32,000 nt of DNA from Alkalilimnicola ehrlichii MLHE-1. Lineage in GTDB: Bacteria; Pseudomonadota; Gammaproteobacteria; Nitrococcales; Halorhodospiraceae. The translations under genes and the position numbers were made by a program. The notes under the pieces are model-generated. The model worked only from the letters and a program-made list of their open reading frames with translations, had not been told where the DNA came from and searched no databases. Location: positions 870,001 through 902,000 of the forward strand of contig NC_008340.1 of NCBI RefSeq assembly GCF_000014785.1. Direction: 5' to 3'. The first letter of the stretch is position 1. The number at the start of each line of letters is the position of its first letter. Shown piece by piece: positions 8,702-29,915 of the stretch.

Positions 8702-8808
8702 CAGACAAGAAAAAAGCCGCCCCGGTAACCCCGTAAGCGGCTGTTTTTCTTTGCTTTGTCTGGTAGGCGCGAGTGGACCCGAACCACCGACCCCCACCAT
8801 GTCAAGGT
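8702..8808. repeat. attL: 107-bp direct repeat (copy A) of the tRNA-Val 3' half plus its terminator
   Basis: Identical to 17698-17804 except at two positions (8732 C vs 17728 G; 8779 C vs 17775 T). Confidence 0.9.
8761..8808 (-). pseudogene. Displaced 3' fragment (positions 30-77) of tRNA-Val(GAC)
   Basis: Copy of the anticodon loop through CCA of the intact gene at 17757-17833, with no 5' half. The T-loop reads TTCGGGT instead of TTCGAGT (conserved A58 changed to G). Confidence 0.85.
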
Positions 8809-8902
8809 TTCATAGAACCCCCGTGCCATGCGGGTCACAGTAATAAAAACAGAAAGATAGGCGTGTTACCAAGGAATGGTAGGGTTCTGTTGTGAAAGAT
8901 TG

Positions 8903-8932
8903 TGGTACCATGATGGTCACAGATTGGTCACA
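8903..8932 (+). promoter_or_regulatory. Putative arm-type recombinase/RDF binding sites, attL arm
   Basis: TGGTACCA(8903) tga TGGTCACA(8914) gat TGGTCACA(8925): three octamers phased at 11 bp between attL and the int start. The 23-nt string GATGGTCACAGATTGGTCACACG is repeated exactly at 17657-17679. Confidence 0.6.
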
Positions 8933-8947
8933 CGGGAGCCTGTCGCC

Positions 8948-10282
8948 ATGCCCGCCAAAACACTGGACACCAGCATTACTGATGCCGCCACCCGGCGCTT
9001 CCTGAAGAATGAGCCGGAGCGGGCAACCTTATGGTGTGAGCGGATTACCGGGTTTCACATACTCAAGGTAAAGACCGGGGGCAGTTGGCGGTATCGGTAT
9101 CAGACCGCAGACGGTAAGCGCCGCGTGGCCACCATCGGGCGCTATCCGGCCATGAAACCGCAGCAGGCCGCCGAGAAGGCACTAGCCTGGCGCAATGAGA
9201 ACGTGGACGCGCTGGCAGTAAAGGCCAAACGCACCCGCAATGCCTTGACCGAAGCGCAGAAGGCCGAGCAACGCACGCTGCGGGCCTATCTCGAAGGGCC
9301 GTACGCTAGGTACCAGGAGCGCAAGCGCAGCGGCGCGGAAACCCTGCGCCTCATTCGGCACAACTTCACCGACTGGCTAGACCGGGACATGGCCACGTTG
9401 GACAGCGCAGACGTGAAGGCGTGGCAGGCCAAGCGTGAAGCCGAGGGCCGGGCATACTCCACGCTGCAACGCGCCTATGGTGCGCTGAAAACGGCCCTGA
9501 ACCGCGCCGCGAAACATGACGACCTGCTAGACGCGAACCCCCTGCGAGATGTTCACCTTGAGGCCCCACGGTTTGACGAGGTGGACAAGCAGGTAAAAGC
9601 GGAGCAGACCGCCCGCCGCCTGCTGAGTGACGAGGAAGTGACCGGGCTGCATGAGGGCTTGCGAGCCTTTGCGGATGAGTTGCGCCGCCAGCGCCGTAAC
9701 AGCCGAGCGCATGGCAAGCCGGATCTGCCCGACCTGGACGCGGTGGACTACCCGCATTGGTTTATTCCTTTCTGCCACGTTGCCCTTTATACCGGACTGC
9801 GACCGGGTGACTTGTACGCGCTCACCTGGGCGGAGCTGAACCCCACGTTCGGGCGGCTGAACGTGATTCCTCAGAAAACCCGTCACCACCGCAACCCCGC
9901 CCGCGTGACAATGGATTTAGTGCCGGAGTTGCTGGAGGTGGTGCGGGCCTGGTGGGCGCAGCAGGGCAAGCCTGACACCGGGCTAGTGTTCCCCTCACCC
10001 GTTACCGGCTTGCGGATGGACAAGAAAGCCCACCTGAAAGCCTGGCGACGTGTGAAGCGCCTTGGTGGGCTGCCCGACGATCTGGACTTCTACACCTTGC
10101 GGCACAACTTTATTTCCAAGCTGGTGGCCGCTGGCGTGCCCCTGCTGACAGTGGCGCAACTGGTGGGCCACAAATCGGCGGGGATGATCGAACAACATTA
10201 CGGCGACCTGTGCCCCACCGTAGCGGCTGATGCGTTGGCCGTGTTTTCCAAGTCTGTGACACCGAAGCAGGAGGCGGTATGA
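8948..10282 (+). CDS. int: Tyrosine integrase, P4-type (N-terminal DUF4102 arm-binding domain)
   Basis: N-terminus ...ATRRFLKNEPERATLWCERITGFHILKVKTGGSWRYRYQTADGKRRVATIGRYPAMKPQQA matches the P4-integrase arm domain pattern. Catalytic signature TGLRPGDL ... YTLRHNFISKL ... LVGH ... EQHY. Start taken at ATG 8948; the ORF-track start at 8876 runs over the arm sites. Confidence 0.9.
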   Translation: MPAKTLDTSITDAATRRFLKNEPERATLWCERITGFHILKVKTGGSWRYRYQTADGKRRVATIGRYPAMKPQQAAEKALAWRNENVDALAVKAKRTRNALTEAQKAEQRTLRAYLEGPYARYQERKRSGAETLRLIRHNFTDWLDRDMATLDSADVKAWQAKREAEGRAYSTLQRAYGALKTALNRAAKHDDLLDANPLRDVHLEAPRFDEVDKQVKAEQTARRLLSDEEVTGLHEGLRAFADELRRQRRNSRAHGKPDLPDLDAVDYPHWFIPFCHVALYTGLRPGDLYALTWAELNPTFGRLNVIPQKTRHHRNPARVTMDLVPELLEVVRAWWAQQGKPDTGLVFPSPVTGLRMDKKAHLKAWRRVKRLGGLPDDLDFYTLRHNFISKLVAAGVPLLTVAQLVGHKSAGMIEQHYGDLCPTVAADALAVFSKSVTPKQEAV

Positions 10283-10797
10283 CGGCAGGATGGGCAACCC
10301 CGTTTAACTGGACGGATGAGCAGGCCCGCGAAGTGGTGGCGGAGGTTGGCGAGCGCACGGGCACGCAGGAGCAGCGGGAGCAGTTCGCCCGCGCAGTGGG
10401 AGCAGTGCTGAAGCGCGGCCAAACGCGGCTGTTTATGCCCGACCTGGCAGGCCAGGCCAAGGGCATGCACCAGGGGGCAGCCACGGTACTAGAATCGCTC
10501 AACGCCGAAGCGGCTGACCTTACCGACGAGGAAGCCGACCAGTTGCGTGCGCTGGTGGCTAAGGTGGCGGAGGCCACAGCCGAGGCGGGCACGATGGAGC
10601 GGCGGGGAGCCAGCAAGAAAGACCACCAGACCCTAGCCGAGCTGGCGCAGGTATGGCGCTTTGCGTTCGGGCGCTGGCCAAGTGCCAAGCCCACCGCCCC
10701 CTTCATGCGCGTGGTGCTGTGGATCAATGCACGAAATTACGCCGATCTGCCGACCGGAAACGGCGCTAAGGCTTATATCGGCCAGGGGACCAAATAA
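10279..10797 (+). CDS. Hypothetical protein, translationally coupled to int
   Basis: ATG 10279 overlaps the int stop (ATGA) and is preceded by AGGAGG (10269-10274). 172 aa, acidic and helical, no motif I recognise. Followed by an AT-rich stretch. Confidence 0.6.
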   Translation: MTAGWATPFNWTDEQAREVVAEVGERTGTQEQREQFARAVGAVLKRGQTRLFMPDLAGQAKGMHQGAATVLESLNAEAADLTDEEADQLRALVAKVAEATAEAGTMERRGASKKDHQTLAELAQVWRFAFGRWPSAKPTAPFMRVVLWINARNYADLPTGNGAKAYIGQGTK

Positions 10798-10875
10798 ATA
10801 ATTTTTTCCGGTGACGCCCGTTTTTCCGCCCCTTAGTTCAATGGCCCTACGTTCACAAACGCGAGGGCCATATTC

Positions 10876-11064
10876 ATGTCAGCACAACCCGCCTTTATGC
10901 GGCCACAACAGGCCGCCGATTACCTGGGCATTACGCGCCGCCACCTGTACAACATCGCGGAGCGTGACCCCGAGTTTCCCCGCAAGATTGTATTTTCTAC
11001 CCGCTGCGTAGGGTGGCGCCGGGAAGCCATCGACGAATGGCTAGCCGCCAAGGAGGCGGAATGA
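10876..11064 (+). CDS. alpA: AlpA-family helix-turn-helix regulator / excisionase-like protein
   Basis: 62 aa. RPQQAADYLGITRRHLYNIAERDPEFPRKIVFSTRCVGWRREAIDEWL is the typical Phage_AlpA pattern. Confidence 0.8.
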   Translation: MSAQPAFMRPQQAADYLGITRRHLYNIAERDPEFPRKIVFSTRCVGWRREAIDEWLAAKEAE

Positions 11065-11255
11065 CCTGGATCACCCCCCACGCTGCCGTGTCCGAATACG
11101 GCATCCCCTTGGAGCGTATCGAGGCCGCCATTCTGGCCGGTGAAATAGCCGTTCGGGTGGCGTGCGGTGCGCGGGTGATTGGCCGCGCCGAGGTGGAAGC
11201 GCTTCGATTGAAAATGATGAGCGAACGCCGGGAGGCGTGCGACGGATGCGACTAG
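11061..11255 (+). CDS. Second small excisionase/MerR-like HTH protein
   Basis: ATG 11061 overlaps the alpA stop and is preceded by AAGGAGG. 64 aa. ...AVSEYGIPLERIEAAILAGEI... resembles excisionase-type HTH proteins. Confidence 0.55.
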   Translation: MTWITPHAAVSEYGIPLERIEAAILAGEIAVRVACGARVIGRAEVEALRLKMMSERREACDGCD

Positions 11256-13249
11256 TAAATGAAAACGCCCCCGCCGGCGGGCAACCGGCGAAGGGCGCAA
11301 ATGTGAGCGGGCGGCTCAATGGGAATTATAGCAGCACCGACACCGCCGCGCATCTTGCCGAAAACGGTATTCCGGTATTCCCGGTAAACCTGTCCGAGCC
11401 GAATGCAGACGGGAAACGGGAAAAGACCCCGTTAACAAAGCATGGCCATCTCGACGCCACAACAGACGCCGAAACGGTGCGGCAATGGTGGCGGCGTTGG
11501 CCGAAAGCTATACCCGCTGTTCCGACTGGGAAGGCATCCGGCATTGATGCCCTGGACGTAGACCCCGACGGTTACGAATGGGCCGCCGAGCATTCCGATT
11601 CACTGATGATGGCCCAGCGCATTCACCACACTGAGCGCGGAAAGCATTACCTGTTTCGACACACCGATGGCGTGCGCAATTCCAACGGGAAGATTAGCGC
11701 CGGTATCGATGTGCGCGGGGAAGGCGGGTGGATCGTCTGGTGGCCTGCAAAGGGCCTAGAAGCGCATGGAGAGCTTGCAGACGTATCCGACGCACCCGAA
11801 GCCCTTGCCGATCTGATGCGTGGCGTGCGGAGCAGCACAGAGCGTGACAGCGCTCCTGTTGCTGCCGATGGGGCCGTGATTCCCGAGGGCCAACGGGATA
11901 GCACCTTGACACGGGAGGCCGGGCGACTGCGCCGGTATGGCTACAGCGAATCGGAAATGCTGGCCGCGTTGCACGCGATCAACTCCCACCGTTGCCAGCC
12001 GCCGCTAGACGCCGATCAAGTGGAGAAGATTGCCCGAAGCGTTGGCCGATACGATCCGGCGCATGAGTTCACGCCAGACAGCGATGAACCGGCCAGCCCT
12101 GAGCCGTTCGACCTTGTGGCGGCCAGTGTGGGCGATCTGATACGCACGCCACCGCCGCCCCGCCGTTGGCTGGTGCATGAGCGCCTGCCGCTGGACGTGG
12201 TGGCCCTGCTGGCGGCTGCTGGCGGTACGGGTAAGAGCATGGCCACCTTGCAGCTCGCGGTGAGCACCGCCACCGGCTGGCCTTGGTTCGATATGGAGAT
12301 CAGCGAGCCGGGGGCGGTGCTGATGGTGTCGGCAGAGGATGACCGCGACGAAATCCACCGCCGCCTGTCCGTGGTGCTGGAGCATTACGCCGACGATGCC
12401 GACCCGTTCGCCGTTGACGCGTTCAGCGAGTACCACGACCAGCTAGAGCGCCGCCTGTTCATTCTGGACAGGGTGGGCGAGGACAACCGCCTAACCGCCA
12501 AGATCGACCGGGAGACGTTGCGCACGGGGTTTGCCAATCGGGTGATTGCCACCGCCGAGGCGATGCCCGAGCCGCCCGTGATGATCGTGCTTGATCCCCT
12601 GAGCCGGTTCGATGGTGGCGACCCGAACGACAACAGCGACGGAACCCGCTTGATCGAGGCCGCCGAGCATATCCGCAAGGCCACGCGGGCAACCGTGCTG
12701 CTACCCCACCACGTCGCCAAGTCCAGCATGAAGGATTCCAGCGCCGGACAGGAGGCCGTGCGCGGTGCGTCGGGCCTGGTGGATGGTGCCCGGTGGGTGG
12801 GCCTGATGCGCGGGATGAATGACGAGGACGCGAAGGAGCACGGGATCAGCGAGGACGATGCCGGGCGCTATGTGCGCTTCAACACCCCGAAAGCCAACTA
12901 TTCCGCCCCGTGGCCCGGTCTGTGGCTGGAGCGGCGCAAGGGTGGGGTGTTGGCGGCCACGCACCTGAAGCCGCAAAAACTGGCCAACAAGGAGCGCAAG
13001 GCCGATGCGGAATATCAGGAGGTGGTGCGCCGTATCACCAAGCTGTTGCAGGACAAGGGGGCGATGCCCAAGCGCCGGATTGAGGACGAATGGGGCGGGA
13101 CAACCAACGTCTTGAAGGCCGGGCAAAAGCGCGTGCGCGACACCATCCACCGGGCGCTAGACGAGGGGCATCTCGTGGTGCAGACCACCGGCGAGGGCAA
13201 GGAGGTTATTGGTGTCCCCGACGCCTGGTTAGAGAGGGCCGGGCAATGA
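11246..13249 (+). CDS. Bifunctional primase-polymerase / PriCT / AAA_25 (RepA-like) replicase
   Basis: Start taken at ATG 11246 (MRLVNEN...). PrimPol N-domain: GIPVFPVN...KTPLTKHG..DAT...WW...VPTG..SGIDALDVD. PriCT-1-like: IPEGQRDSTLTREAGRLRRYGY...CQPPLDADQVEKIARSV. Walker A: AAAGGTGKS. Confidence 0.85.
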   Translation: MRLVNENAPAGGQPAKGANVSGRLNGNYSSTDTAAHLAENGIPVFPVNLSEPNADGKREKTPLTKHGHLDATTDAETVRQWWRRWPKAIPAVPTGKASGIDALDVDPDGYEWAAEHSDSLMMAQRIHHTERGKHYLFRHTDGVRNSNGKISAGIDVRGEGGWIVWWPAKGLEAHGELADVSDAPEALADLMRGVRSSTERDSAPVAADGAVIPEGQRDSTLTREAGRLRRYGYSESEMLAALHAINSHRCQPPLDADQVEKIARSVGRYDPAHEFTPDSDEPASPEPFDLVAASVGDLIRTPPPPRRWLVHERLPLDVVALLAAAGGTGKSMATLQLAVSTATGWPWFDMEISEPGAVLMVSAEDDRDEIHRRLSVVLEHYADDADPFAVDAFSEYHDQLERRLFILDRVGEDNRLTAKIDRETLRTGFANRVIATAEAMPEPPVMIVLDPLSRFDGGDPNDNSDGTRLIEAAEHIRKATRATVLLPHHVAKSSMKDSSAGQEAVRGASGLVDGARWVGLMRGMNDEDAKEHGISEDDAGRYVRFNTPKANYSAPWPGLWLERRKGGVLAATHLKPQKLANKERKADAEYQEVVRRITKLLQDKGAMPKRRIEDEWGGTTNVLKAGQKRVRDTIHRALDEGHLVVQTTGEGKEVIGVPDAWLERAGQ

Positions 13250-13458
13250 GCGGGCAGCGGGCAAGCAACGGGCAACGGGCAAGCGGGCAAATTGCCCGCC
13301 GGAAGTGCCTGCCCGCCTTAGAGCGCACAACCACGCGGGTTTCCAGCGGGCAACGGGCAAAACCCTACTTTGCCCGCGCCTATCGGGAAACCCGCGCCAC
13401 ACAAGGGCGGGCAGCGGGCAACGGGCAACCCCCTACGGGGGCGGGGCAGTAATTGCCC
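13241..13458. repeat. Iteron cluster, putative origin of replication
   Basis: At least 17 copies of GGGCA(A/G) / its complement TTGCCC / CTGCCC, mostly as (A/G)CGGGCAA. Sites seen at 13241, 13252, 13259, 13270, 13277, 13285, 13292(rc), 13309(rc), 13348, 13355, 13370(rc), 13409, 13416, 13423, 13444, 13453(rc). Two palindromes: GCGGGCAAATTGCCCGC and GGGGCAGTAATTGCCC. The cluster starts at the replicase stop codon. Confidence 0.65.
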
Positions 13459-13532
13459 GCCCCAACGGGTTGCGGCCTGAAAGCGCCGCAATACCCCCGG
13501 TGGTTCATGGATCAACTGATGAGGAACACCCC

Positions 13533-13727
13533 ATGCGAAACGACGAAGGCACCACCCTGGCCGCGCAGATCCTTGTGCAGATCGAGCAGGCGCAGTTAGC
13601 AGGCGTTCACCCCCATGACGTGACGCGGGCACTGTCCGCCACGCTGATGGAGACAACGGCGAAGGGAGACGAGGACCGGGTGGCATCGGTGCTGCGGGCA
13701 ACGGCGGATGCACTGGTGAGGCGGTGA
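13533..13727 (+). CDS. Hypothetical small protein (64 aa)
   Basis: ATG 13533 lies 6 nt after GAGGAA. Helical sequence with no recognisable motif. Confidence 0.4.
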   Translation: MRNDEGTTLAAQILVQIEQAQLAGVHPHDVTRALSATLMETTAKGDEDRVASVLRATADALVRR

Positions 13728-13884
13728 AGGTGTTACGAAAGGTAACGCTTGCGCTCGAATCAGCCGCCGGTGGCGGGGCAGGGAGGCCCTAGACCCCCAC
13801 AGAACGAAAGACCCGTACCCTAATGGGGTAGGGTTAGGGAATTGTAAGTACCTGTTTGTGAATGCAATAATGCCGCCACCGTGG

Positions 13885-13908
13885 TATGCTGTGACCAATA
13901 TGTGACCA
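13885..13908 (+). promoter_or_regulatory. Possible extended -10 promoter (TGGTATGCT) overlapped by an operator made of two phased TGTGACCA octamers
   Basis: TGnTATGCT at 13882-13890. TGTGACCA at 13890-13897 and 13901-13908 is the reverse complement of the arm-site octamer, with the same 11-bp phasing. Located about 20 nt upstream of the ATG at 13930. Confidence 0.4.
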
Positions 13909-13929
13909 CCAGCGGAAACTATCACGGCA

Positions 13930-14301
13930 ATGGGCACCACCACACAAGGCAAACCGCGCCAGATACCCCGGCAATACTCCAACGATTGGTTGGAGCGCCT
14001 GGACGGGCGCACGGCGATTGCCAAGGCGGTGAATGATCGCCTTCATCATTTGGTGCGTGACCTTGGAGGCCCCGACGCCCTCAGCTACCAGGAGCAAAGT
14101 ATCTGCCGCCGCATTGTCTGGCTGGAGGCGCAGATAGAAAGCCGGGAGGTGGCGCTAGCGAAGGGTGAGGATGTAGACGAGGCCCGCCACGTTGCCAACA
14201 TCAACACGCTTACCGGGTTGCTGAAGGCGGTGGGCCTGGAGCGCCGCTCGAAAGATGTGCCCGACCTTGCGCAATACCTGGCCAGCAAGGAGGCGGGCTA
14301 A
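13930..14301 (+). CDS. Hypothetical protein; terminase small subunit suspected from position only
   Basis: 123 aa, helical (LDGRTAIAKAVNDRLHHLVRDLGG...LSYQEQSICRR...). Lies two genes upstream of TerL. No diagnostic motif. Confidence 0.35.
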   Translation: MGTTTQGKPRQIPRQYSNDWLERLDGRTAIAKAVNDRLHHLVRDLGGPDALSYQEQSICRRIVWLEAQIESREVALAKGEDVDEARHVANINTLTGLLKAVGLERRSKDVPDLAQYLASKEAG

Positions 14302-14537
14302 TGGTCATGTGCGCTGCCTGTAAGCACTTCCCCGGCAACGGCCAACTGTGTCCGAAGGCCAAGCGCCACGCCACGCACCACCCGCGCAAGTGTGACAAAT
14401 TCACCGGCCACCGCCTGAGCTTCGCGGTGCTGCAAGCCCGTTCCCTCGCCACGTTCGCCCGCCGCCACCTGACCCCGGCCAGTTACCAGCGGGTATTGCG
14501 CGATGCCCACCGTCTGGCGGAAGAGGTGAGGCGATGA
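14301..14537 (+). CDS. Small Cys/His-rich protein (putative zinc-binding)
   Basis: 78 aa. C4-x2-C7-x9-C17-x13-C31 with a His-rich stretch (RHATHHPRKC). Start overlaps the upstream stop and the stop overlaps the TerL start. Confidence 0.45.
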   Translation: MVMCAACKHFPGNGQLCPKAKRHATHHPRKCDKFTGHRLSFAVLQARSLATFARRHLTPASYQRVLRDAHRLAEEVRR

Positions 14538-16063
14538 CCAACATTGTCGAAGCCTTCACCGACCCGCAGTTGCTAGGCCAGTCGTTTGGCGAGGATACCC
14601 GCGAGGCTTGGCGTGCTGTCCTGTCAGGCGCGTTCGCCCTGCCGATGGATGATGACCGCCTTGCCCTGTTTAAGCGGCTGTCAGGCGACCGTGAGCCGCC
14701 TCAGCGGCAGGCGCGGGAGCTATGGGCAATCGCGGGTAGGCGGAGCGATAAGACCCATACCGCAGCCGGTATTGCCGTATACCTGGCGACCATCGGGGCG
14801 GAGCTGGACGGCACCCTGGCCCGCCTGACCGCTGGCGAGCGTGGTGTGGTTCAGTTGCTTGCGGTGGATCGCCAACAGGCCAAGGTTGCGCTTGGGTACG
14901 TTCGCGGCCTGTTCGCTGATAGCCCGGTCATGTCCAGCCTGGTGGAGAAGGAGAACACCGAGGGCGTTTTGCTCCGCAACGGCGTATCTATTGAGGTGGC
15001 CACCAACAGTCACCGGGCCGTGCGTGGGCGCACTCTGTTGGCGGCCATTCTGGACGAATGCGCCTTCTTCAAGGATGAGGCGACCGCAACCCCCGATGTA
15101 GAGGTTTACCGCGCCCTGGTGCCTTCTCTGGCGACCACCGGGGGCATGCTTGTCGGTATCTCCAGCCCCTACGCCCGCCGGGGGCTGCTCTACAGCAAGT
15201 GGCGCAAGCACTACGGCAAGCCCGGTGATGTGCTGGTGGTGCAGGGCGGAACACTGGACTTCAACCCCACCCTTGATCCCCGCGTTATCGCGGAGGCGGA
15301 GCAGGATGATCCCGAGGCGGCCAAAGCCGAATGGCATGGGCAATTCCGTGCTGATGTTGAGGGTTTTGTAACACGCGAGGCCGTAGACGCCTGCACCGCA
15401 CCGGGCCGCATTGAGCTACCGCCGGTGGCTGGCGAGCGGTACACGGCCTTCGTGGACCCGTCTGGTGGCTCCAAGGATGCGTTCACGCTGGCGATCGCCC
15501 ACCAGTCTGATGGGCTGACCGTGGTGGACGCTATCCGCGCTCAGAAACCGCCGTTCAGCCCGGAGGCGGTGGTTAAAGAGTTCGCCGGTCTGCTGAAGGA
15601 ATACAAGATCAGCAAGGTGGTGGGCGATCGTTACGGCGGTGAGTTTCCTCGCGAGCTGTTCCGAAAACAGGGCATTGCCTACAAGCTATCTGATCGGCCT
15701 AAGTCTGACCTGTATCGCGACATGCTCCCGTTGCTCAATTCTGGGCGCGTGGAGTTGCCGGACAATGGCCGATTGCAAAACGAATTGACGAGCCTGGAGC
15801 GGCGCACCAGCCGCGCCGGGAAAGACTCAATAGACCACCCGCCAAATGGCACCGACGATGTGGTTAACGCGGTGGCCGGGTGTATAATTGAGGCAGCAAA
15901 ACCCAAAGCCGTTCCCCGCGTGCGGCGGATGGGTGATTCGATCAGTTCCGGTTCCAATTCTGGTTCCAGCGTTCTGGATCGAATCGCGCAAGGTCAGAAA
16001 GCCAGCGGGAGGTTGGCGAGTACGCGCCGAAGTTTTCTGCGAGATGCAGACGGTTTCGGTTGA
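14534..16063 (+). CDS. terL: Phage terminase, large subunit
   Basis: Walker A-like AGRRSDKT, Walker B LAAILDECAF. C-terminal RNaseH-like nuclease motifs FVDPSGGSKDAFTLAIAH and DDVVNAVAG. GAGGTGAGG RBS precedes ATG 14534. Confidence 0.85.
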   Translation: MTNIVEAFTDPQLLGQSFGEDTREAWRAVLSGAFALPMDDDRLALFKRLSGDREPPQRQARELWAIAGRRSDKTHTAAGIAVYLATIGAELDGTLARLTAGERGVVQLLAVDRQQAKVALGYVRGLFADSPVMSSLVEKENTEGVLLRNGVSIEVATNSHRAVRGRTLLAAILDECAFFKDEATATPDVEVYRALVPSLATTGGMLVGISSPYARRGLLYSKWRKHYGKPGDVLVVQGGTLDFNPTLDPRVIAEAEQDDPEAAKAEWHGQFRADVEGFVTREAVDACTAPGRIELPPVAGERYTAFVDPSGGSKDAFTLAIAHQSDGLTVVDAIRAQKPPFSPEAVVKEFAGLLKEYKISKVVGDRYGGEFPRELFRKQGIAYKLSDRPKSDLYRDMLPLLNSGRVELPDNGRLQNELTSLERRTSRAGKDSIDHPPNGTDDVVNAVAGCIIEAAKPKAVPRVRRMGDSISSGSNSGSSVLDRIAQGQKASGRLASTRRSFLRDADGFG

Positions 16064-16104
16064 TTGATGAAAGCGGGTTTTCACTTCAACCGAGGTAACG
16101 AGTT

Positions 16105-17244
16105 ATGACGCATCAAGTGAAGGAAATGGTCGAGGGCGTGGCCCGAGACTTCGAGGGGTTTAAGTCCCGCCAGGATCAAGCCCTGTCCGACCTGGACGAG
16201 CGCGTGAAGCGTGCCGAGACCCTGGCCGCCCGCAAGGTGGGCATGACCGTGGACAGCGGCGCAGGCATGGGGCCGGAGACCAAGGCGGTACGCGAGTGGC
16301 TGCGTGGTGGCGACTTCGACCGCAAGGCCCTGAGCATCGAGGATGACGGCCAAGGCGTGACCGTGCGCAGCGATTGGGCGGATCAAATCTTTAAGAAGAT
16401 TCGCGAATCCAGCCCCGTCCGCCAGGTGGCTAATAACCTGTCCACCAATTCCAACGAATTGGAGGTTCTGGTTGACCGTGGTGAACCGGACTCAGCGTGG
16501 GTGGCTGAAAAGGGCGACCGCGATCCGACTGCCGCTAGTTTCATGTCTCGGCATAAGATCGCCGTGCATGAGCACTACTCGTATCCGAGCGTAACCCAGC
16601 AATTCCTGGAGGATAGCCGGCTCGACCTGGAGCAGTGGTTGCAGGATAAAATCGGCACCCGTTTCGGTCGGCAGGAAGCCGAATCCTTTATCAAGGGTGA
16701 CGGCAACGGCAAGCCTCGCGGCATTCTGGATTACGACACCGTGCCGGATGGTGATTTCGAGTGGGGCGCTGATCCTGCCGATTACACCATCGGGGCGATC
16801 TATACCGGCGAATCGGGTGACTTCCCGAGCAACAATCCCGATAACGTGCTCTACGATGTTGTGGACGCGCTCAAGTCGGATTACCTGGGCAATGCACGGT
16901 TCATGATGAGCCGCGCCACGATGAACAAAATTCGGAAGCTGCGGGATGGTGACGACCGTGCCTTGCTCCAGATGAGCCTGGCGGAAGGTCGGCCCAATAC
17001 CCTGCTGGGGTTCCCGGTGGTGATTGCCGAGGATATGCCGGACCCGGCGGCGGATTCCGAGTCGATCCTGTTCGGTGACTTCGGCCAGGCGTACACCATC
17101 GTTGACCGGATCGGGGTAAGCGTGCTGCGTGATCCCTACACCCTGCCCGGCTGGGTCCGCTGGTACGTCCGCAAGCGTATCGGCGGGGCGCTGACCAACC
17201 CCGAAGCCCTGAAGGCCGTGGTGTTCGGCAGCGAGCCGAGCTGA
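16105..17244 (+). CDS. Major capsid protein, HK97 family, with N-terminal coiled-coil (delta/scaffold-like) segment
   Basis: 379 aa. N-terminal helical region (KEMVEGVARDFEGFKSRQDQALSDLDERVKRAE), then the typical HK97-family core (...IFKKIRESSPVRQVANNLSTNSNELEVLV..., ...GKPRGIL..., ...MSRATMNKIRKLRD...). Confidence 0.85.
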   Translation: MTHQVKEMVEGVARDFEGFKSRQDQALSDLDERVKRAETLAARKVGMTVDSGAGMGPETKAVREWLRGGDFDRKALSIEDDGQGVTVRSDWADQIFKKIRESSPVRQVANNLSTNSNELEVLVDRGEPDSAWVAEKGDRDPTAASFMSRHKIAVHEHYSYPSVTQQFLEDSRLDLEQWLQDKIGTRFGRQEAESFIKGDGNGKPRGILDYDTVPDGDFEWGADPADYTIGAIYTGESGDFPSNNPDNVLYDVVDALKSDYLGNARFMMSRATMNKIRKLRDGDDRALLQMSLAEGRPNTLLGFPVVIAEDMPDPAADSESILFGDFGQAYTIVDRIGVSVLRDPYTLPGWVRWYVRKRIGGALTNPEALKAVVFGSEPS

Positions 17245-17400
17245 TGAACACCGCCCGCTCCCGAGGCGGCAATATCGGGAGAGTTCCCCGCAGCCACCGC
17301 GGCGGCGCAAGCCGACAGGGTGGACGCGGCAACGCCCTGGCCGTGTCTCAGAACAAGGGCGGGCGGTATGGTTCCACCGCTGCGAAGAGACGGACCCACG

Positions 17401-17433
17401 CCCCCGAGCGAGAGGCTGCGGGGGCATCTTTTT
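17401..17433 (+). terminator. Intrinsic terminator after the capsid gene
   Basis: CCCCCG(17401-06)...CGGGGG(17419-24) stem followed by CATCTTTTTG. Confidence 0.5.
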
Positions 17434-17449
17434 GTATGGAGGTGCAACC

Positions 17450-17697
17450 ATGCTGACAGCCGAGGAACGTCTATGGGTGGCCGCACTGGCCCGGTATGTA
17501 CAGGACGCCCGTGCGCCCAGTGCCTACGGTGACGAGGGCGAGGCGCTGGCGGACCTGGAGGGCGATGCCGTGATACTGCGCCGCCTGGCGGAGCTGGCGG
17601 GCTATGACCCCGAGGCCACGGTGGTGGCGGTGAGGCGGGAGGTGTTGTGTTACCCCGATGGTCACAGATTGGTCACACGAAGCCCTGAGCGTGTGAC
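17450..17697 (+). CDS. Hypothetical protein (possible head-completion/adaptor); the 3' end is undefined because the frame has no stop before attR
   Basis: ATG 17450 lies 6 nt after GGAGGT. The frame stays open through the arm sites, attR and the tRNA until 18217. The end coordinate given is the element boundary, not a stop codon. Confidence 0.35.
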
Positions 17698-17699
17698 CA
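17648..17699 (+). promoter_or_regulatory. Putative arm-type binding sites, attR arm
   Basis: TGTTACCC(17648) cga TGGTCACA(17659) gat TGGTCACA(17670), with the same 11-bp phasing as at attL. One inverted octamer TGTGACCA (17692-17699) abuts the identity block. Confidence 0.6.
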
Positions 17700-17804
17700 G
17701 ACAAGAAAAAAGCCGCCCCGGTAACCCGGTAAGCGGCTGTTTTTCTTTGCTTTGTCTGGTAGGCGCGAGTGGACTCGAACCACCGACCCCCACCATGTCA
17801 AGGT
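17698..17804. repeat. attR: 107-bp direct repeat (copy B), forming the 3' half and terminator of the functional tRNA-Val
   Basis: See attL. The block ends 2 nt 5' of the anticodon loop (tRNA position 30). Confidence 0.9.
17705..17745 (-). terminator. Intrinsic (bidirectional-looking) terminator of tRNA-Val
   Basis: AAAAAA-AGCCGC-CCCGGTAACCCGGTA-AGCGGCT-GTTTTT. The stem is AGCCGC/GCGGCT with an inner CCGG/CCGG pair. A-run and T-run flank it, and the minus strand reads the stem followed by TTTTTT. Confidence 0.75.
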
Positions 17805-17833
17805 GGTGCTCTAACCAGCTGAGCTACGCGCCT
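17757..17833 (-). tRNA. tRNA-Val (anticodon GAC)
   Basis: The reverse complement reads AGGCGCGTAGCTCAGCTGGTTAGAGCACCACCTTGACATGGTGGGGGTCGGTGGTTCGAGTCCACTCGCGCCTACCA. Acceptor AGGCGCG/CGCGCCT, D arm GCTC/GAGC, anticodon stem CCACC/GGTGG with loop TTGACAT, T arm GGTGG-TTCGAGT-CCACT, encoded CCA. 77 nt. Confidence 0.95.
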
Positions 17834-17852
17834 GTCGTGTTCGACGAGCGGT

Positions 17853-17880
17853 ATTGTACCGTGTTGTCGGTGGTTGTCAA
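17853..17880 (-). promoter_or_regulatory. Sigma70 promoter of tRNA-Val
   Basis: The minus strand reads TTGACA (17880-17875), a 16-nt spacer, then TACAAT (17858-17853), about 20 nt upstream of the tRNA 5' end. Confidence 0.75.
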
Positions 17881-17989
17881 AGGACGCGGGATTGGGCTGG
17901 GGCTGGCCGGGAGGGGACGAACGCGGTCGAACTGCGAGGGGTGGGTCGGTGCTGTGGTTTTCAGCGCGGCCAGGCGCCTGACCCGTTCT

Positions 17990-18023
17990 GAAAACCCGTT
18001 TGCGGAGGCGGGCCCCCGCAAAC
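17990..18023 (-). terminator. Candidate intrinsic terminator of the small peptide gene
   Basis: Stem GTTTGCGG (17998-18005) / CCGCAAAC (18016-18023). On the minus strand it is followed by GGGTTTTC. Confidence 0.45.
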
Positions 18024-18040
18024 GAATGCTTCACCTGCCC

Positions 18041-18151
18041 TTAGAGCAGGCCGCCCAGCAGGCCGGTGCTGCCCAGCAGGCCGTTCACCAGTTCCAAGAC
18101 CGGGTTCAGGATCCCCAGCAGCACTCCAAGCAGATCATTGACCAATTCCAT
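18041..18151 (-). CDS. 36-aa Leu/Gly-rich hydrophobic peptide (not in the ORF track because it is under 60 aa)
   Basis: The minus strand has AAGGAG, 7 nt, then ATG GAA TTG ... CTC TAA = MELVNDLLGVLLGILNPVLELVNGLLGSTGLLGGLL. A hairpin terminator lies downstream and an AT-rich promoter region upstream. Confidence 0.5.
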   Translation of the reverse strand: MELVNDLLGVLLGILNPVLELVNGLLGSTGLLGGLL

Positions 18152-18465
18152 GACGTTACTCCTTGTTTCCCGTATGGGTGGAAAAGGCCCGCACATCTAT
18201 TATTATGCAGGCACTGAAAGCGTACGGTATGTTGTTTCGTTGCGGAATATTGTTTTAGTGCTAGTCGGTGTTAGTGGTTTGTTTGTAGGCATTATCATAA
18301 TAATTTAATGATTATCGGGCGGCGTTTGAGTTGAATAAAATGCCCATCTTTTATGGGTTCCGGTTGGTCCGTAACGCATTGGCTCATCTCCGTTGCGGCG
18401 AGTCATGCTCGGGGCCAGAGGGGCGCTCACCGGGGCCGGAGCAGGGTGGGACCGCACGCCGTTTG

Positions 18466-23185: not shown

Positions 23186-25351
23186 ATGTCCCAATACGAA
23201 CACCGCCCGACGTCTTCGGACCGTGATGACGAGATCGAGATCGGCCGTCTGGTCGAGATCCTGCTGAACGGCAAATGGATCATTGCCGGTCTCAGTGCAT
23301 TGGGGCTGGCCCTGGGCGGGTTCTATGCCTACACCAGCACACCGGTCTACAGCGGCGACATGCTGCTGCAGGTGGAGAGTAAGCAGGCGACGCTACCGGG
23401 GCTGTCGGAGATGCTGGGCGGCGAACAGCAGGTGCCCACCAGTGCGGAGGTGGAGCTGCTGCGATCGCGCATGGTGGTGGGTTCGGTGGTGGACCAACTG
23501 GACCTGGCCGTGCAGGCTCGGCCCTTGCCGACGGACTGGCGCGAGGCGGTGCTGGGTGTGAGCAACCCCCGGCGCCACATTGAGGTGGGCCGCTTCGAGG
23601 TCTCGCCGGCCCTGGAGGGCCAGACGTTCATCGTCCGTGTGCTGGGCGAGGGGCAGTTCGCCCTGCTTGAGGACGACGGCGGGGCGGAACTGGCGCGCGG
23701 GCGGGTGGACGAGACCCTGGTGCTGGACAACCCGGACGGCAGCTCGCTTCAGCTCTTTGTCCACGTGCTCACCGGCGAGCCGGGCGACACCTTCGAGCTG
23801 GTGCGCCAGCCGCGGCTGCGCGCCATTCAGAACCTGCGCAACGGCTTGAACGTCAGTCAGCGCGGTGAGTCGGGGATCCTGGAGGTCACTTACGAGCACC
23901 CGGACCGCCAGCTTATCGAGGAGGTCCTCAACACCCTGGGTATGGTCTACGTGCGCCAGAACGTGGAGCGTCGGACCGAGGAGGCGGCCCGCAGCCTGGA
24001 GTTCCTGGAGGAGCAGCTGCCACAGTTGCAGGACCGACTGCAGCAGGCCGAGGATGCCTTCAACGCCTTCCGCCGCGAGCACCAGGCGGTGGATATGGAT
24101 GAGAACACCCGGGTGATGCTCAGCCAGTTGGTCGAGGTGGAGAGCGAACTCCAGGCCTTGCGCCTGGAGGAGAGCGAGAAGAGCCTGCGCTTTGGTCGCG
24201 AGCACCCGCAAATGCAGTCGCTGCGCCAACGGCGCCAATCGCTGGAGACCCTGCGTGCCGAGCTGGAGGAGGAGCTGGGGGAACTGCCGGAGCGCCAGCA
24301 GCAGTTGGTGCGCCTGCGCCGCGAGGTGGAGGTGAACACCCAGCTCTACACCAACCTGCTCAACACCGCCCAGGAGTTGCGGATCTCCCAGGCCGGCACG
24401 GTTGGCAATGCCCGCGTGGTGGATGACGCGGCCGTGGGCTTCAATCCAGTGGCGCCGCAGACCACCCTGATTATGGCGCTGAGCCTGCTCCTGGGCGGCA
24501 TGCTGGGGGTGGGCACCGTGTTCGGCCGCGAGATGCTCCGTCGCGGGGTCGAAGACCCGGACGCCCTGGAACTGGAGGTGGGCATCCCGGTCTACGCCGT
24601 GGCGCCCCACAGCCCGGCGGCCCTGCAGCTCGAGAAGAAGGGCCGTCGACAGCGGACCCAGGTGCCGCTGCTGGCGGAGAAAAACAGCCAGGACCCGCTG
24701 GTGGAGAGCCTGCGCAGTCTGCGCACCAGCCTGAACTTCGCTCTGCTTAACAACGCCCGTAACGTCCTGGCCCTGACCAGTACCGGCCCGGGGGAGGGCA
24801 AGACCACCCTGTCCGTCAACTTGGCGGCGGTCCTGGCCCAGAGCGGCCAGCGGGTGCTGCTCATCGATACCGACATGCGCCGGGGCCATCTGCATATCTT
24901 TCTGCAGAACCGGCGGCGCGAGCCGGGCCTGTCCGGGGTGCTGGCCGGGCAGGCCACACTGGAGGAGGCGGTCTCACGCATCAGGGAGAATCTCGACGTG
25001 CTGCCCGCCGGCACCTTCCCGCCGAACCCCTCGGAGCTGCTGATGCAGGAGGGATTCGGCCGGCTGATCGAGGAGCAGCGCCAGCGCTATGACCTGGTGA
25101 TCCTGGACACCGCGCCAGTGATGCCGGTCACCGACGGCGTCCTGGCGGCCGCCCACGCCGGGCCGGTGTTCCTGGTGGCCCGGGCGGGCTATGTGACCAC
25201 CCGCGCGGTGCAAAGCACCATCTGGCGGCTGGAGAAGAACCAGATCGACACCACCGGGCTCGTGGTCAACGACCTCAACCCGAAACGGAGTGGGCGCTCG
25301 AGCGATTACTACTATTATCAGTACCAGTACAAGGCGCGGGCCAAGGACTGA
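23186..25351 (+). CDS. wzc: Tyrosine autokinase / polysaccharide co-polymerase (PCP-2a)
   Basis: N-terminal TM and Wzz domain, a long coiled coil, a second TM. BY-kinase Walker A TSTGPGEGKTT, A' LLIDTDMRR, Walker B LVILDTAP. C-terminal Tyr cluster SSDYYYYQYQYK. Confidence 0.9.
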   Translation: MSQYEHRPTSSDRDDEIEIGRLVEILLNGKWIIAGLSALGLALGGFYAYTSTPVYSGDMLLQVESKQATLPGLSEMLGGEQQVPTSAEVELLRSRMVVGSVVDQLDLAVQARPLPTDWREAVLGVSNPRRHIEVGRFEVSPALEGQTFIVRVLGEGQFALLEDDGGAELARGRVDETLVLDNPDGSSLQLFVHVLTGEPGDTFELVRQPRLRAIQNLRNGLNVSQRGESGILEVTYEHPDRQLIEEVLNTLGMVYVRQNVERRTEEAARSLEFLEEQLPQLQDRLQQAEDAFNAFRREHQAVDMDENTRVMLSQLVEVESELQALRLEESEKSLRFGREHPQMQSLRQRRQSLETLRAELEEELGELPERQQQLVRLRREVEVNTQLYTNLLNTAQELRISQAGTVGNARVVDDAAVGFNPVAPQTTLIMALSLLLGGMLGVGTVFGREMLRRGVEDPDALELEVGIPVYAVAPHSPAALQLEKKGRRQRTQVPLLAEKNSQDPLVESLRSLRTSLNFALLNNARNVLALTSTGPGEGKTTLSVNLAAVLAQSGQRVLLIDTDMRRGHLHIFLQNRRREPGLSGVLAGQATLEEAVSRIRENLDVLPAGTFPPNPSELLMQEGFGRLIEEQRQRYDLVILDTAPVMPVTDGVLAAAHAGPVFLVARAGYVTTRAVQSTIWRLEKNQIDTTGLVVNDLNPKRSGRSSDYYYYQYQYKARAKD

Positions 25352-27281: not shown

Positions 27282-27531
27282 AATAGCCTGAAAAATCCAT
27301 TTTATATTTTTCAATCAGGCCGGTAATTCGGGCCTGGGCGGGCGCTATTATGTAGTCAAGCTGACAGCTTGCCGCACCGCAATAGTTAAATAGGTCTATT
27401 CGGTTATCAGTAATGGGAAGCCTTAAGGAAAGGGTGAGCCGCTTTTATTATGACGGCCGAACGCTTTCCCCGTCAGCGCCAGAGCTGAAACCTTCCTCTG
27501 TAATCACGAGGGCCGCCAACCCTCTCCCCCC

Positions 27532-27636
27532 TCATCGCGAGGGCCGCAGGCCCGTGGCGATCCAGGGCGGTAGACTGCCACGTCGGCTTCGCCTCCTCGC
27601 AGTGACGGTGGGGGCGGGGCCGCGCTCGCAGTGAGG
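27532..27636. repeat. REP/MITE-like structured repeat, copy 1
   Basis: About 105 bp. TCATCGCGAGGGCCGCAGGCCCGTGGCGATCCAGGGCGGTAGACTGCCACGTCGGCTTCGCCTCCTCGCAGTGACGGTGGGGGCGGGG... Internal inverted repeats: CATCGCGAGG/CCTCGCAGTGACG, GCCGnAGGC, CGTGGC/GCCACG. Confidence 0.8.
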
Positions 27637-27696
27637 GTAGGGGGCGCCCGCAGCGTCTGGCCATGTTCATCAAGAGGGCCGAAGGCCACCCCACCG

Positions 27697-27800
27697 TCAT
27701 CGCGAGGGCCGAAGGCCCGTGGCGATCCAGGGCGGTAGACTGCCACGTCGCTTCGCTCCTCGCAGTGACGGTGGGGGCGGGTCCACGCTCGCAGTGATGG
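27697..27800. repeat. REP/MITE-like structured repeat, copy 2
   Basis: Same unit as 27532-27636 with a few substitutions and indels. Half-units occur at 27501-27521 and 27668-27690. Tail sub-repeats GCGCTGGCA(A/G)T(A/G)AGGGTGGGGG lie at 27808-27860. Confidence 0.8.
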
Positions 27801-27884
27801 TGGGGGGCTGCGCTGGCAATAAGGGTGGGGGGCTGCGCTGGCAGTGAGGGTGGGGGCAGGCCTGCGTCCGCCGTGACGGGGGAG

Positions 27885-29915
27885 TCAGCGTTTAGCCAAT
27901 GGGGCTTCTGATTGGGGGGCGCTTATTGGCGTGGTGCCACGCTGGTAGGCCCGGCGGATGGGGCAGGGGCCTTCGCCGTCCCTGAACAGGCCTCGGGCGA
28001 CGGCGTCGGCCGACTCGTTCAGCTGCCGCCCGAGCACGTCGCAGTTGGGTCCGGCGGCCTCGTAACCCTCCACCACCTGGGCCATCAGCTTGCGGGCGTC
28101 CTGGGTGTTGTAGCGCCGGCAGGCCGCGCGCAGCTCGCTTAGCAGGCTTTGCAGGGTATCGGTGGGCAAGTGCCCCTCGCGGGCGCGCATGATCATGGGG
28201 TGGCTGGTCTCGGTGACCGCCTCACCCAGCAGCAGCTCCTCATACAACTTCTCGCCGGGGCGCAGGCCGGTGAAATGGATCTCGATGTCGCCATCGGGGT
28301 GTTCCGCGTTTCGCTCCTCGAGACCGGACAGACGGATCATGCGCCGGGCCAGGTCGACGATGCGCACCGGCTCGCCCATGTCCAGCACGAAGACCTCGCC
28401 GCCGTGGGCCATGGATCCCGCCTGCAGGACCAGCGAGGCGGCCTCGGGGATGGTCATGAAATAGCGGGTGACCTCGGGGTGGGTGACCGTGATCGGGCCG
28501 CCGTTGCGGATCTGCTCGCGGAACAGCGGCACCACCGAGCCGGAGGAGCCGAGCACATTACCGAAGCGGACCATGGAGAAGCGGGTGCGGATATCGGGCT
28601 GACGGGCCAACCCCTGCAGCACCAGTTCGGCCAGGCGCTTGCTCGCCCCCATGACATTGGTGGGGCGGACGGCCTTGTCGGTGCTCACTAGCACGAAGTA
28701 CCGGACCCCGGCCTCCACCGCCGCCAGGGCCGTGTGCAGGGTGCCGAAGACGTTGTTATCGATGCCCTCCAGCACGTTGGTCTCCACCAGCGGGACGTGC
28801 TTGTAGGCAGCGGCGTGATAGACCGTGTCGACGCGGAAGGCGTGCATCAGCATTTCCATGCGCGCCAGGTCGGTGACATTGGCCAGGACGGCCTGGACGG
28901 CGGGGCGCCGGGCCTCCCCCTGCAACTGAGCCTGGAGCTCGCGCTCGATGGCGTAGAGGGCGAACTCGGAGCGCTCGACCAACACCAGCTGAGTGGGCTG
29001 CTCGCGCAGGATCTGCCGGCAAAGCTCGGAGCCGATGGAGCCCCCGGCGCCGGTGACCATGACCGTCTTACCGCGGATGCAGCGGGCGAGCAGCTCCCGC
29101 CGCGGGCCCACGGCATCACGCCCGAGCAGGTCCTCCACCTCCACCTCCCGCACCTCGTCGGGACTGGCCCGGTTGGCCACGATGTCCGCCAGGCTGGGGA
29201 TGGTGAGGATGTGGGCGGGCAGCGGCTCCAACTGGGCGACGATCTCCCGGCGGCGGGTCCGCGACAGCCGCGGCATGGCCAGCAGGATATACTCCAGCCG
29301 GTTGCGGTCGATCAGTTCTGCCAGCTCGGCCGGTTTGCGCACGGGCAGCCCGGCGATCACCGTGCCCTGTTTTGCCGGGTTGTCATCCACGAAGGCCACC
29401 GGGCGGTACTGCCGGCCATTGAACAGGCTGGTGGCCAGGCCAATCCCCCCGGTCCCCGCGCCGTAGATGACCACCGGCTTCTCGGTCCCCCGGCGTTTGA
29501 TCGCCGCCTGGAACCAAGCGCGCACCACCAGGCGCGACCCGCCCACCATGAACAGCGCCAGCAGCCAGTAGATCAGCAGAGCGGAGCGGGGAATACCCTC
29601 CAGCCGGCCCAGCATAACCAGGGCGCCGAAGACCAGTGCGGACAGGGTCACCCCCTGCACCACCGCAATGATCGCCTGCAGCCCCATGTAACGGACCACC
29701 GCGCGGTAAAGGCCGAACAGGGCGAAAACCGGCAGGCTGACCGCCGGCACGAGCAGCAGCAGCCACCCGTAGTCCAGCAGCACACCGGGGACGGGGGTCC
29801 CCAGGCGCAGGCTGAAGGCCGCCCACAGGGCCACGGGCAGCATGAGCGTGTCCGCCATGATCATGACGAACCGCTTCACCGGGCGTGGCAGATCGATGAG
29901 GAACGCTTTATTCAT
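27885..29915 (-). CDS. CapD/WbpM/PglF-family membrane-anchored nucleotide-sugar 4,6-dehydratase, paralog 2
   Basis: 676 aa, collinear with paralog 1. Long identical blocks, e.g. EVREVEVEDLLGRDAV, VMVTGAGGSIGSELCRQIL, LVLVERSEFALYAIE, FSMVRFGNVLGSSGSVVPLFREQIR, VTHPEVTRYFMTIPEAASLV. Confidence 0.9.
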   Translation of the reverse strand: MNKAFLIDLPRPVKRFVMIMADTLMLPVALWAAFSLRLGTPVPGVLLDYGWLLLLVPAVSLPVFALFGLYRAVVRYMGLQAIIAVVQGVTLSALVFGALVMLGRLEGIPRSALLIYWLLALFMVGGSRLVVRAWFQAAIKRRGTEKPVVIYGAGTGGIGLATSLFNGRQYRPVAFVDDNPAKQGTVIAGLPVRKPAELAELIDRNRLEYILLAMPRLSRTRRREIVAQLEPLPAHILTIPSLADIVANRASPDEVREVEVEDLLGRDAVGPRRELLARCIRGKTVMVTGAGGSIGSELCRQILREQPTQLVLVERSEFALYAIERELQAQLQGEARRPAVQAVLANVTDLARMEMLMHAFRVDTVYHAAAYKHVPLVETNVLEGIDNNVFGTLHTALAAVEAGVRYFVLVSTDKAVRPTNVMGASKRLAELVLQGLARQPDIRTRFSMVRFGNVLGSSGSVVPLFREQIRNGGPITVTHPEVTRYFMTIPEAASLVLQAGSMAHGGEVFVLDMGEPVRIVDLARRMIRLSGLEERNAEHPDGDIEIHFTGLRPGEKLYEELLLGEAVTETSHPMIMRAREGHLPTDTLQSLLSELRAACRRYNTQDARKLMAQVVEGYEAAGPNCDVLGRQLNESADAVARGLFRDGEGPCPIRRAYQRGTTPISAPQSEAPLAKR

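Follow-up and report, generated by a model that had tools for sequence, protein, structure and literature searches.

The Element and Its Genes

The window (the whole stretch of 32,000 nt from Alkalilimnicola ehrlichii MLHE-1 that was analysed) contains an integrated element of 9.1 kb (8702-17804), bounded by a direct repeat of 107 nt, the two copies of which are 98% identical according to a repeat finder. The repeat includes part of a tRNA-Val(GAC) gene, which is intact at the right-hand end of the element and displaced at the left-hand end (Table 1). With one end at tRNA position 30, the identity block covers the tRNA from the anticodon loop to its 3′ terminus; from this extent, the site of crossover is probably the tRNA anticodon loop. 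About 59 nt of the block lie beyond the tRNA and include a terminator-like hairpin, whereas the blocks of related elements (see below) are just 45-66 nt long; the element seems to hold a copy of the region downstream of the host tRNA. The GC content of the element is 62.8%, compared with 67-69% in the flanks. The host flanks matched none of the retrieved loci, and an empty attB was not found among them. In the right-hand host flank there are repeats of two further kinds: a GC-rich cluster at 27521-27887, with families of 53 nt and 65 nt in copies 25-165 nt apart, which resembles intergenic repetitive elements; and three pairs (25485-25784/28122-28421, 26718/29355, and 26568/29205) with a common offset of 2637 nt and 77-78% identity, which indicates tandem paralogous genes.

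All genes of the element are on the plus strand. The first, int, encodes a tyrosine integrase with a Pfam Arm-DNA-bind_3 domain (PF13356, residues 11-84, 33.2 bits vs a cut-off of 27) and a Pfam Phage_integrase domain, and is assigned to PHROG 1 (integrase). An 80-aa open reading frame (ORF) that looks like a helix-turn-helix (HTH) protein from its sequence, and which matches no Pfam or PHROG family, is a candidate excisionase or regulator. Directly after the primase-helicase gene, at 13239-13428, a GC-rich 26-nt repeat (...AGCGGGCAACGGGCAA) occurs four times, with spacings of 18, 78, and 68 nt, and these are candidate iterons of a replication origin. The packaging genes begin with p123, which has no family match in Pfam or PHROG, and include a large terminase (TerL) and an HK97-type major capsid protein (MCP). 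Homologues of TerL with 44-54% identity gave 392 matches in metagenomes, often with the gene order p123-TerL-MCP, and scans of viral contigs with Int and TerL found no relatives. Genes for a portal, a protease or a head-tail adaptor were not detected in the element with Pfam or PHROG. By its gene content, the element looks like a reduced, capsid-encoding phage satellite.

The last small ORF (17432-18217, plus strand), homologues of which are present in L101 and L184, has no stop codon before attR; it takes in the octamer pair of the right arm and continues across the core and the tRNA. After excision and circularization, this frame would reach a stop codon at ~8838-8843, so that the product may differ between the integrated and excised forms.

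Table 1. Positions of the features of the element, its borders and the proposed binding sites in the window.
Feature	Position	Strand	Remark
attL identity block	8702..8808	.	displaced 3′ part of tRNA-Val (~8761-8808) and downstream terminator-like stretch
P′ arm	8809..8947	+	core to int start codon; same length (134-141 bp) in ten relatives
GGGTCACA, 7/8 copy	8832..8839	+	possible extra arm site close to the core
TGGTAACA, 7/8 inverted copy	8864..8871	-	possible extra arm site
TGGTACCA, palindromic 6/8 copy	8903..8910	.	overlaps -10-like TACCAT
P′ arm pair TGGTCACAgatTGGTCACA	8914..8932	+	ends 15 bp before int ATG; proposed tandem arm-type Int sites
int	8948..10282	+	tyrosine integrase with N-terminal arm DNA-binding domain (Pfam, PHROG)
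172-aa ORF		+	overlaps int stop; from the ORF list
80-aa ORF, HTH-like	11013..11255	+	HTH character judged from sequence alone; true start probably internal
Prim-Pol/PriCT/AAA_25 replicase (primase-helicase)		+	between the 80-aa and 140-aa ORFs (Pfam, PHROG)
140-aa ORF		+	followed by a 202-bp gap ahead of p123
Promoter-like TTGTAA-18-AATAAT	13842..13871	+	TG before -10; consensus match only
Internal pair TGGTCACAtatTGGTCACA	13890..13908	-	22 bp before p123 ATG; inverted relative to arm pairs; proposed operator
Packaging/capsid operon	13930..17244	+	p123, 78-aa ORF, large terminase, MCP
p123		+	first gene of the operon; small-terminase-like by position only
Large terminase	14534-16063	+	PHROG 2, terminase large subunit
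HK97-type major capsid protein	16105-17244	+	Pfam Phage_capsid, 1.4e-84
P arm pair TGGTCACAgatTGGTCACA	17659..17677	+	ends 80 nt from the tRNA 3′ end
Inverted perfect octamer	17692..17699	-	14 nt past the P arm pair; abuts the identity block
attR identity block	17698..17804	.	tRNA anticodon loop to 3′ end and downstream stretch
tRNA-Val(GAC)	17757..17833	-	intact; integration target (ARAGORN)

Octamer Pairs in the Element

Each arm of the element carries two perfect TGGTCACA octamers 11 bp apart on the plus strand, with starts at 8914 and 8925 in the P′ arm and at 17659 and 17670 in the P arm. They lie within a string of 23 nt, GATGGTCACAGATTGGTCACACG, which the initial annotation had placed at 8912-8934 and 17657-17679 correctly to the letter; the inverted perfect octamer of attR and the 7/8 copy GGGTCACA of attL are likewise where it had described them. 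According to the repeat finder, the similarity of the arms extends to 35 nt with 91% identity (8900-8934 vs 17645-17679). The initial annotation had also described a third, degenerate direct copy one turn upstream of each pair, and the sequence makes no firm case for it as a site: a 6/8 match is present at attL, but it is a palindrome (TGGTACCA), and the string at attR, TGTTACCC, matches at 4/8 positions and fits better when inverted (GGGTAACA, 6/8), so that as a direct repeat it is weak. The palindrome at attL may serve as a weak site, belong to the int promoter, or do both. With regard to the 7/8 inverted copy at 8864-8871, GTGTTACC is found in the P arm too, at 17647-17654. The distance from the anticodon-side end of the identity block to the start of the pair is 106 bp in the P′ arm and 145 bp in the P arm.

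There are eight perfect octamers in the 32-kb window, compared with 0.86 expected, and none of 100 shuffles reached eight. Seven of them are inside the element, the sole outside copy (at 25192) being single and at chance level. The dimer TGGTCACA-N3-TGGTCACA, for which hand arithmetic on a 16-base pattern gives a chance expectation of ~1e-5 per window, occurs three times, and all three dimers of the window are within the element, in agreement with the enrichment there that the initial annotation had anticipated. Single octamers with one mismatch are not enriched in the window (27 vs 20.8 expected); thus, the signal resides in the perfect and paired copies only. The third dimer, overlooked in the initial annotation, is a perfect pair on the minus strand (13890-13897 and 13901-13908), ahead of the packaging operon.

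Arm Pairs in Related Elements

A scan for Int homologues, limited to one genome per species, gave 18 loci with 38-66% identity, in Thioalkalivibrio, Marinobacter, Pseudohongiella, Pseudoalteromonas, Halieaceae, and other gammaproteobacterial MAGs. The related elements share the architecture of the window, i.e., a 3′ fragment of a tRNA gene beside int and an intact tRNA gene 5.6-10.4 kb downstream. Shortly before the int ATG, 17 of the 18 loci have a clear octamer pair in an 11-bp register (the equivalent in L102 is degenerate and doubtful), and the sequence of the pair is clade-specific (Table 2). All ten relatives for which both ends were available (Int 41-66%) have the same clade-specific pair, in the same orientation, in the far arm. 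The phased dimer is therefore found at the same position, on both arms, and co-varying in 10/10 relatives, which bears out the conservation of sites in homologous elements that the initial annotation had proposed as a check. At up to four mismatches, the arm pair is otherwise absent from each of these ten loci of 17-21 kb, the exceptions being L101, with a weak copy in its interior as well as one non-phased chance match, and L110, with a non-phased chance match.

The geometry is also conserved. Measured from the end of the identity block on its anticodon side, the distance to the start of the pair is 102-107 bp in the P′ arm and 124-145 bp in the P arm, across the window and its relatives; the two pairs would lie 227-251 bp apart in the excised circle. 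In 11 elements, 10-21 bp separate the end of the P′ pair from the start codon of int. Int is the only protein that tblastn detects in all of these elements. The other cargo differs, the terminase module of the window being common only to L113 and its last small ORF only to L101. No motif other than the pairs was consistently common to both arms in a 7-mer search. Beside the P′ pair, GTGTTAC(C) is conserved in those relatives with an Int identity of at least 52%, where it coincides with a -10-like hexamer, and inverted near-copies follow the P-arm pair in L099 (TGTGACC), L100 (TGTGGCCA), and L101 (TGTAACC).

Table 2. Octamer pairs of the window and of other elements.
Element	Int identity	Pair before int	Arm motifs set beside the internal pair	Internal pair
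Window		TGGTCACA x2
L099	66%	TGGTCACC / TGGTGACA
L100, L101, L116	~60% (L116: 66% over an 80-residue fragment)	AGGTCACA / TGGTGACA	L101: P′ AGGTCACAgatTGGTGACA, P TGGTCACAgatTGGTAACA	L101: GGGTCACAtatTGATAACA, 50 bp before a non-homologous terminase module
L103, L104	52%	TGGTTACA / TGGTCGCA
L105	46%	TAGTCACT x2
L106	43%	TGGTGACA / CGGTGACA
L107-L110, L115	~41%	TGGCTACA x2
L111, L112, L114	~41%	TGGCTAGT x2
L113	38%	TGGCGACA / TGGTCACA	TGGCGACAaatTGGTCACA	TGGCAACAtttTGGCGACA, ~60 bp before the p123 homologue
L184/185			TGGCCACAgatTGGCTACA and TGGCTACAttcTGGCCACA	CGGCCACAgacTGGCTAAT
L126			P′ TGATACGT/TGGAGCGT, P TGGTACGC/TGGTACGT	three phased minus-strand copies
L173			GTTACCCC x2 on both arms	GTTACCCCcgtcGTTAACTT

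A Third Pair Ahead of the Packaging Operon

The internal pair of the window is situated in the gap of 202 bp ahead of p123. Equivalent internal pairs are present in L101, L113, L184, L126, L173, L166, L152, and L176; they carry each element's own arm motif and are inverted relative to the arms (Table 2). The layout of a plus-strand pair in the P′ arm, a minus-strand pair before the small-terminase-like gene (terS), and a plus-strand pair in the P arm is complete in five independent elements, namely the window, L101, L184/185, L126, and L173, and partial in four more, L113, L166 (with an integrase of a different family), L152/156, and L176 (with a different geometry). The elements with this layout span several integrase lineages; the Int of L173, judged by its N-terminal sequence, is of the classical P4 type. 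A survey of the 250-bp regions upstream of p123 homologues covered 30 loci, drawn both from metagenomes and from genomes; 9 of the 30 regions contain a perfect phased octamer pair, compared with 37 of 1050 control windows. At about 13 of the 30 loci, nothing upstream of p123 amounts to a phased pair of 7/8 or better; L128 has no phased pair in its arm; and L099, L100, and L111, which are without a large terminase, have no clear internal pair.

Promoter scans predicted nothing in L184 or L113, and their predictions in the window and L101 were weak. In the window the internal pair is downstream of the predicted -10, whereas in L101 the pair overlaps the predicted -35, and because the predicted geometry differs in this way, the position of the pair argues for neither repression nor activation.

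In nearly all loci with p123 and TerL, whatever their arm motif, a (G/C)TACCC(T) box is located upstream of the pre-terS pair (window 13814-13832, L184, L121-L126, L128, L101, and L113), at a distance of ~60-110 bp as judged by eye at four loci. In the window, the box is within a dyad, ACCCTA..TAGGGT, centred ~57 bp before the predicted start of transcription. As the box is invariant between elements, it may be the site of a shared factor, e.g., a late activator of a helper phage.

The Probable Binding Protein of the Pairs

The pairs are likely to be arm-type sites, as the initial annotation had read them, bound by the N-terminal domain of the element's own Int. This reading is supported by the conservation and co-variation of the arms, by the Arm-DNA-bind_3 domain of Int, and by a core of the octamer in common with phage lambda. 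In the window and in ten relatives, the repeats are on both arms, away from the core, and unlike the core in sequence. They co-vary with the integrase, and with neither the cargo nor the host. Sites for a host factor were rejected, since the motifs differ among elements within the one genus Pseudoalteromonas. In attP of lambda (NC_001416), the arm sites are aGGTCACtaat (P1), an inverted AGTCACTAT (P2), and aGGTCACtat (P′1), and the GGTCAC core of P1 and P′1 is identical to that in the octamer of the window.

The same design appears outside this family of integrases. A scan of viral contigs for the exact pattern gave 98 matches, none in a contig that encodes a close homologue of Int; most of these are probably due to chance or unrelated, and only the four contigs with a double match are informative. 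Those four unrelated contigs each have two exact TGGTCACA pairs, 163-259 bp apart, with a core resembling a tRNA fragment between the pairs in at least three of the four (L003 being the doubtful one) and, adjoining on either side, a gene for a tyrosine integrase of another family. They look as would be expected of attP in its excised form. A pair per arm thus appears to be a recurrent design of attP, independent of any overlap with an int promoter. On another viral contig (L019, IMGVR_UViG_3300010350_000694), TGGTCACAATT occurs seven times in tandem with a period of 11 bp at 9103-9180, preceded by three copies of TTGTTCACACT; this array is located downstream of large genes.

Within the N-terminal domain of Int, an alignment revealed conserved basic and aromatic positions (W47, R48, R50, Y51, K57, and R58), with no simple correspondence between residues and the bases that change in the motif. 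A stand-alone paralogue of this domain, which would be an alternative binder, was not found in the element. In the excised circle, there would be two pairs in the same orientation ~250 bp apart, flanking the core, and, by analogy with lambda, Int held at the arm pairs by its N-terminal domain would reach across to the core sites and assemble the recombination complex.

Taking into consideration that Int alone is common to the elements, that it has an arm-binding domain, that the octamer shares its core with lambda, and that viral attP sites have the same design, Int is favoured over an excisionase as the protein that binds the arm pairs. The pairs would otherwise be sites for a recombination directionality factor (RDF) of the Xis/Cox/Apl/Vis/AlpA type, for which the 80-aa HTH-like ORF would be the candidate in the window; such a protein would polymerise head-to-tail on repeats phased by one helical turn, promote excision at att, and regulate transcription from the promoters of int and of the packaging genes. 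Binding of phased repeats both at att and at promoters is known for the dual-purpose RDFs (P2 Cox, 186 Apl, P4 Vis, and RdfS) and for the MerR-like BldC (PMC11963761), and the RDFs TorI and Vis also down-regulate int (PMC2951348). Most of the elements encode a small HTH or AlpA-type protein (AlpA/HTH_17 in L106, L107, L111, and L113), and a copy outside att at a promoter, to which the internal pair of the window would correspond, is known for Cox and Apl. Despite this, an RDF is rather unlikely to be the binder: the pairs are on both arms, nearly symmetric at ~120-130 bp from the crossover, with no one-arm cluster beside the core; no tblastn-detectable homologue of the 80-aa ORF is present in L099, L100, and L101, although their motif is nearly the same; GGTCAC is the core of the Int arm sites of lambda and not of its Xis sites; and, because no other motif is common to the arms, the arm-binding domain of Int would be left without arm sites.

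It is far less probable that the small terminase (at pac- or cos-type sites) or a replication initiator (at iterons) recognises the pairs. Pac sites and iterons are both often phased direct repeats, and one pair is just upstream of the small-terminase-like gene. However, relatives without a homologue of p123 or TerL, and with other replicases, keep both arm pairs at identical positions, and L101 has a non-homologous terminase module, yet its internal pair is in its own arm motif; the GC-rich repeats beside the primase gene are, moreover, better candidates for iterons. This explanation was rejected on the persistence of the arm pairs in the absence of those genes. Next to no credence can be given to the idea that the repeats are without function, the identity of the arm copies over 23 nt being left over from a duplication or a past end-to-end recombination, as it is effectively refuted by the conserved position and the co-varying arms in ten relatives with Int identities down to 41%, by the lack of flanking similarity, and by the existence of an independent third copy.

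Proposed Control of int and of the Packaging Genes

The P′ pair ends so close to the int ATG that Int bound there would probably shut down its own gene, by analogy with the KplE1 prophage and P4. In KplE1, the int promoter is overlapped by P′ arm sites and int is repressed by its own product; the same is stated for P4, and autorepression has been predicted for most tRNA-associated int genes in such an orientation (PMC2951348); similarly, IntS bound at attP of ICEMlSymR7A has been proposed to shut off intS (PMC11963761). In the relatives, -10-like hexamers (TATACT, TATAAT or TATAGT) abut the first octamer, and a promoter scan of the GC-rich sequence upstream of int in the window predicted none.

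The conserved and co-varying layout of arm, pre-packaging and arm pairs is most simply read as the arm-binding protein also occupying the promoter region of the packaging genes, and suggests that one protein governs both recombination and the expression of these genes. Bound at the internal pair, it would repress or gate the terminase and capsid genes, the expression of which would thereby be tied to the state of the recombination machinery. That Int itself, via its arm-binding domain, should be the transcriptional gatekeeper of the packaging operon throughout a widespread family of satellite-like elements is a tentative proposal, possible but somewhat short of probable.

The arm sites themselves would be a textbook feature, and their int-proximal arrangement appears to fit the paradigm of KplE1 and P4; what seems less ordinary is the inverted third pair before the packaging genes. 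The arm pairs define attP for poorly studied satellite-like elements of marine, alkaline-lake, and soil habitats, and provide a sequence signature for them, i.e., two matching phased pairs that flank a tRNA fragment at a spacing of ~230-250 bp. The third pair is a lead on how such elements silence or switch on their terminase and capsid genes. If the proposal is true, a recombination protein that doubles as a regulator would be a compact solution for a genome of 9 kb, and arm-type sites would have a new use: in a limited literature search, no published case was found of integrase arm sites acting at a promoter other than that of int, or of a regulatory role for them outside att.

Comparison with Known Systems

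In its gene order (int, regulator, primase, terS, terL, capsid) and as a small, tRNA-integrated island, the element resembles the capsid-forming members (cfPICI) of the PICI elements, which comprise 9-11 core components and have a median length of 14 kb (PMC10085698). The element of the window, at 9.1 kb and with the head genes named above undetected, is smaller and sparser than a cfPICI.

The organization of the sites is reminiscent of attP of lambda, which likewise has short repeats, distinct from the core, on both arms, with those of the P′ arm in tandem at about one helical turn and one copy in the P arm inverted. In lambda, it is the N-terminal domain of the heterobivalent tyrosine integrase that binds these sites, as is proposed from the sequence for the window. 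Unlike lambda, the window has a perfect tandem pair on each arm, the two being placed almost symmetrically about the core; its Int has an N-terminal domain of the P4-type family, Arm-DNA-bind_3; transcription of int runs away from att, the gene beginning 15 bp beyond the P′ pair; and the element has a further copy outside att.

The elements of KplE1 IntS and P4 Int (PMC2951348) are also integrated in tRNA genes, with int read outward from attL. Their P′ sites lie over the promoter and 5′ region of int, with negative autoregulation, which for the window is proposed from position only. The P′ sites of KplE1 share TAAA, whereas the motif of the window differs, and no set of TorI-like sites was identified in the window. 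IntS of ICEMlSymR7A (PMC11963761) also has several arm motifs (TGKTGGTATC x5) distributed over both arms; however, ICEMlSymR7A is a conjugative element, and its regulation outside att is via the RDF RdfS and not via copies of the arm sites.

A parallel to the proposed coupling is found in P2 Cox, 186 Apl, and P4 Vis, where one protein binds phased repeats at att and at a promoter, and recombination is thereby coupled to a transcription switch. These three proteins are small winged-helix RDFs, whereas the motif of the window resembles integrase arm sites in both position and sequence. The att sites of Cox, Apl, and Vis lie on one arm. A further difference is the promoter that is putatively controlled, which in the window is that of the packaging operon.
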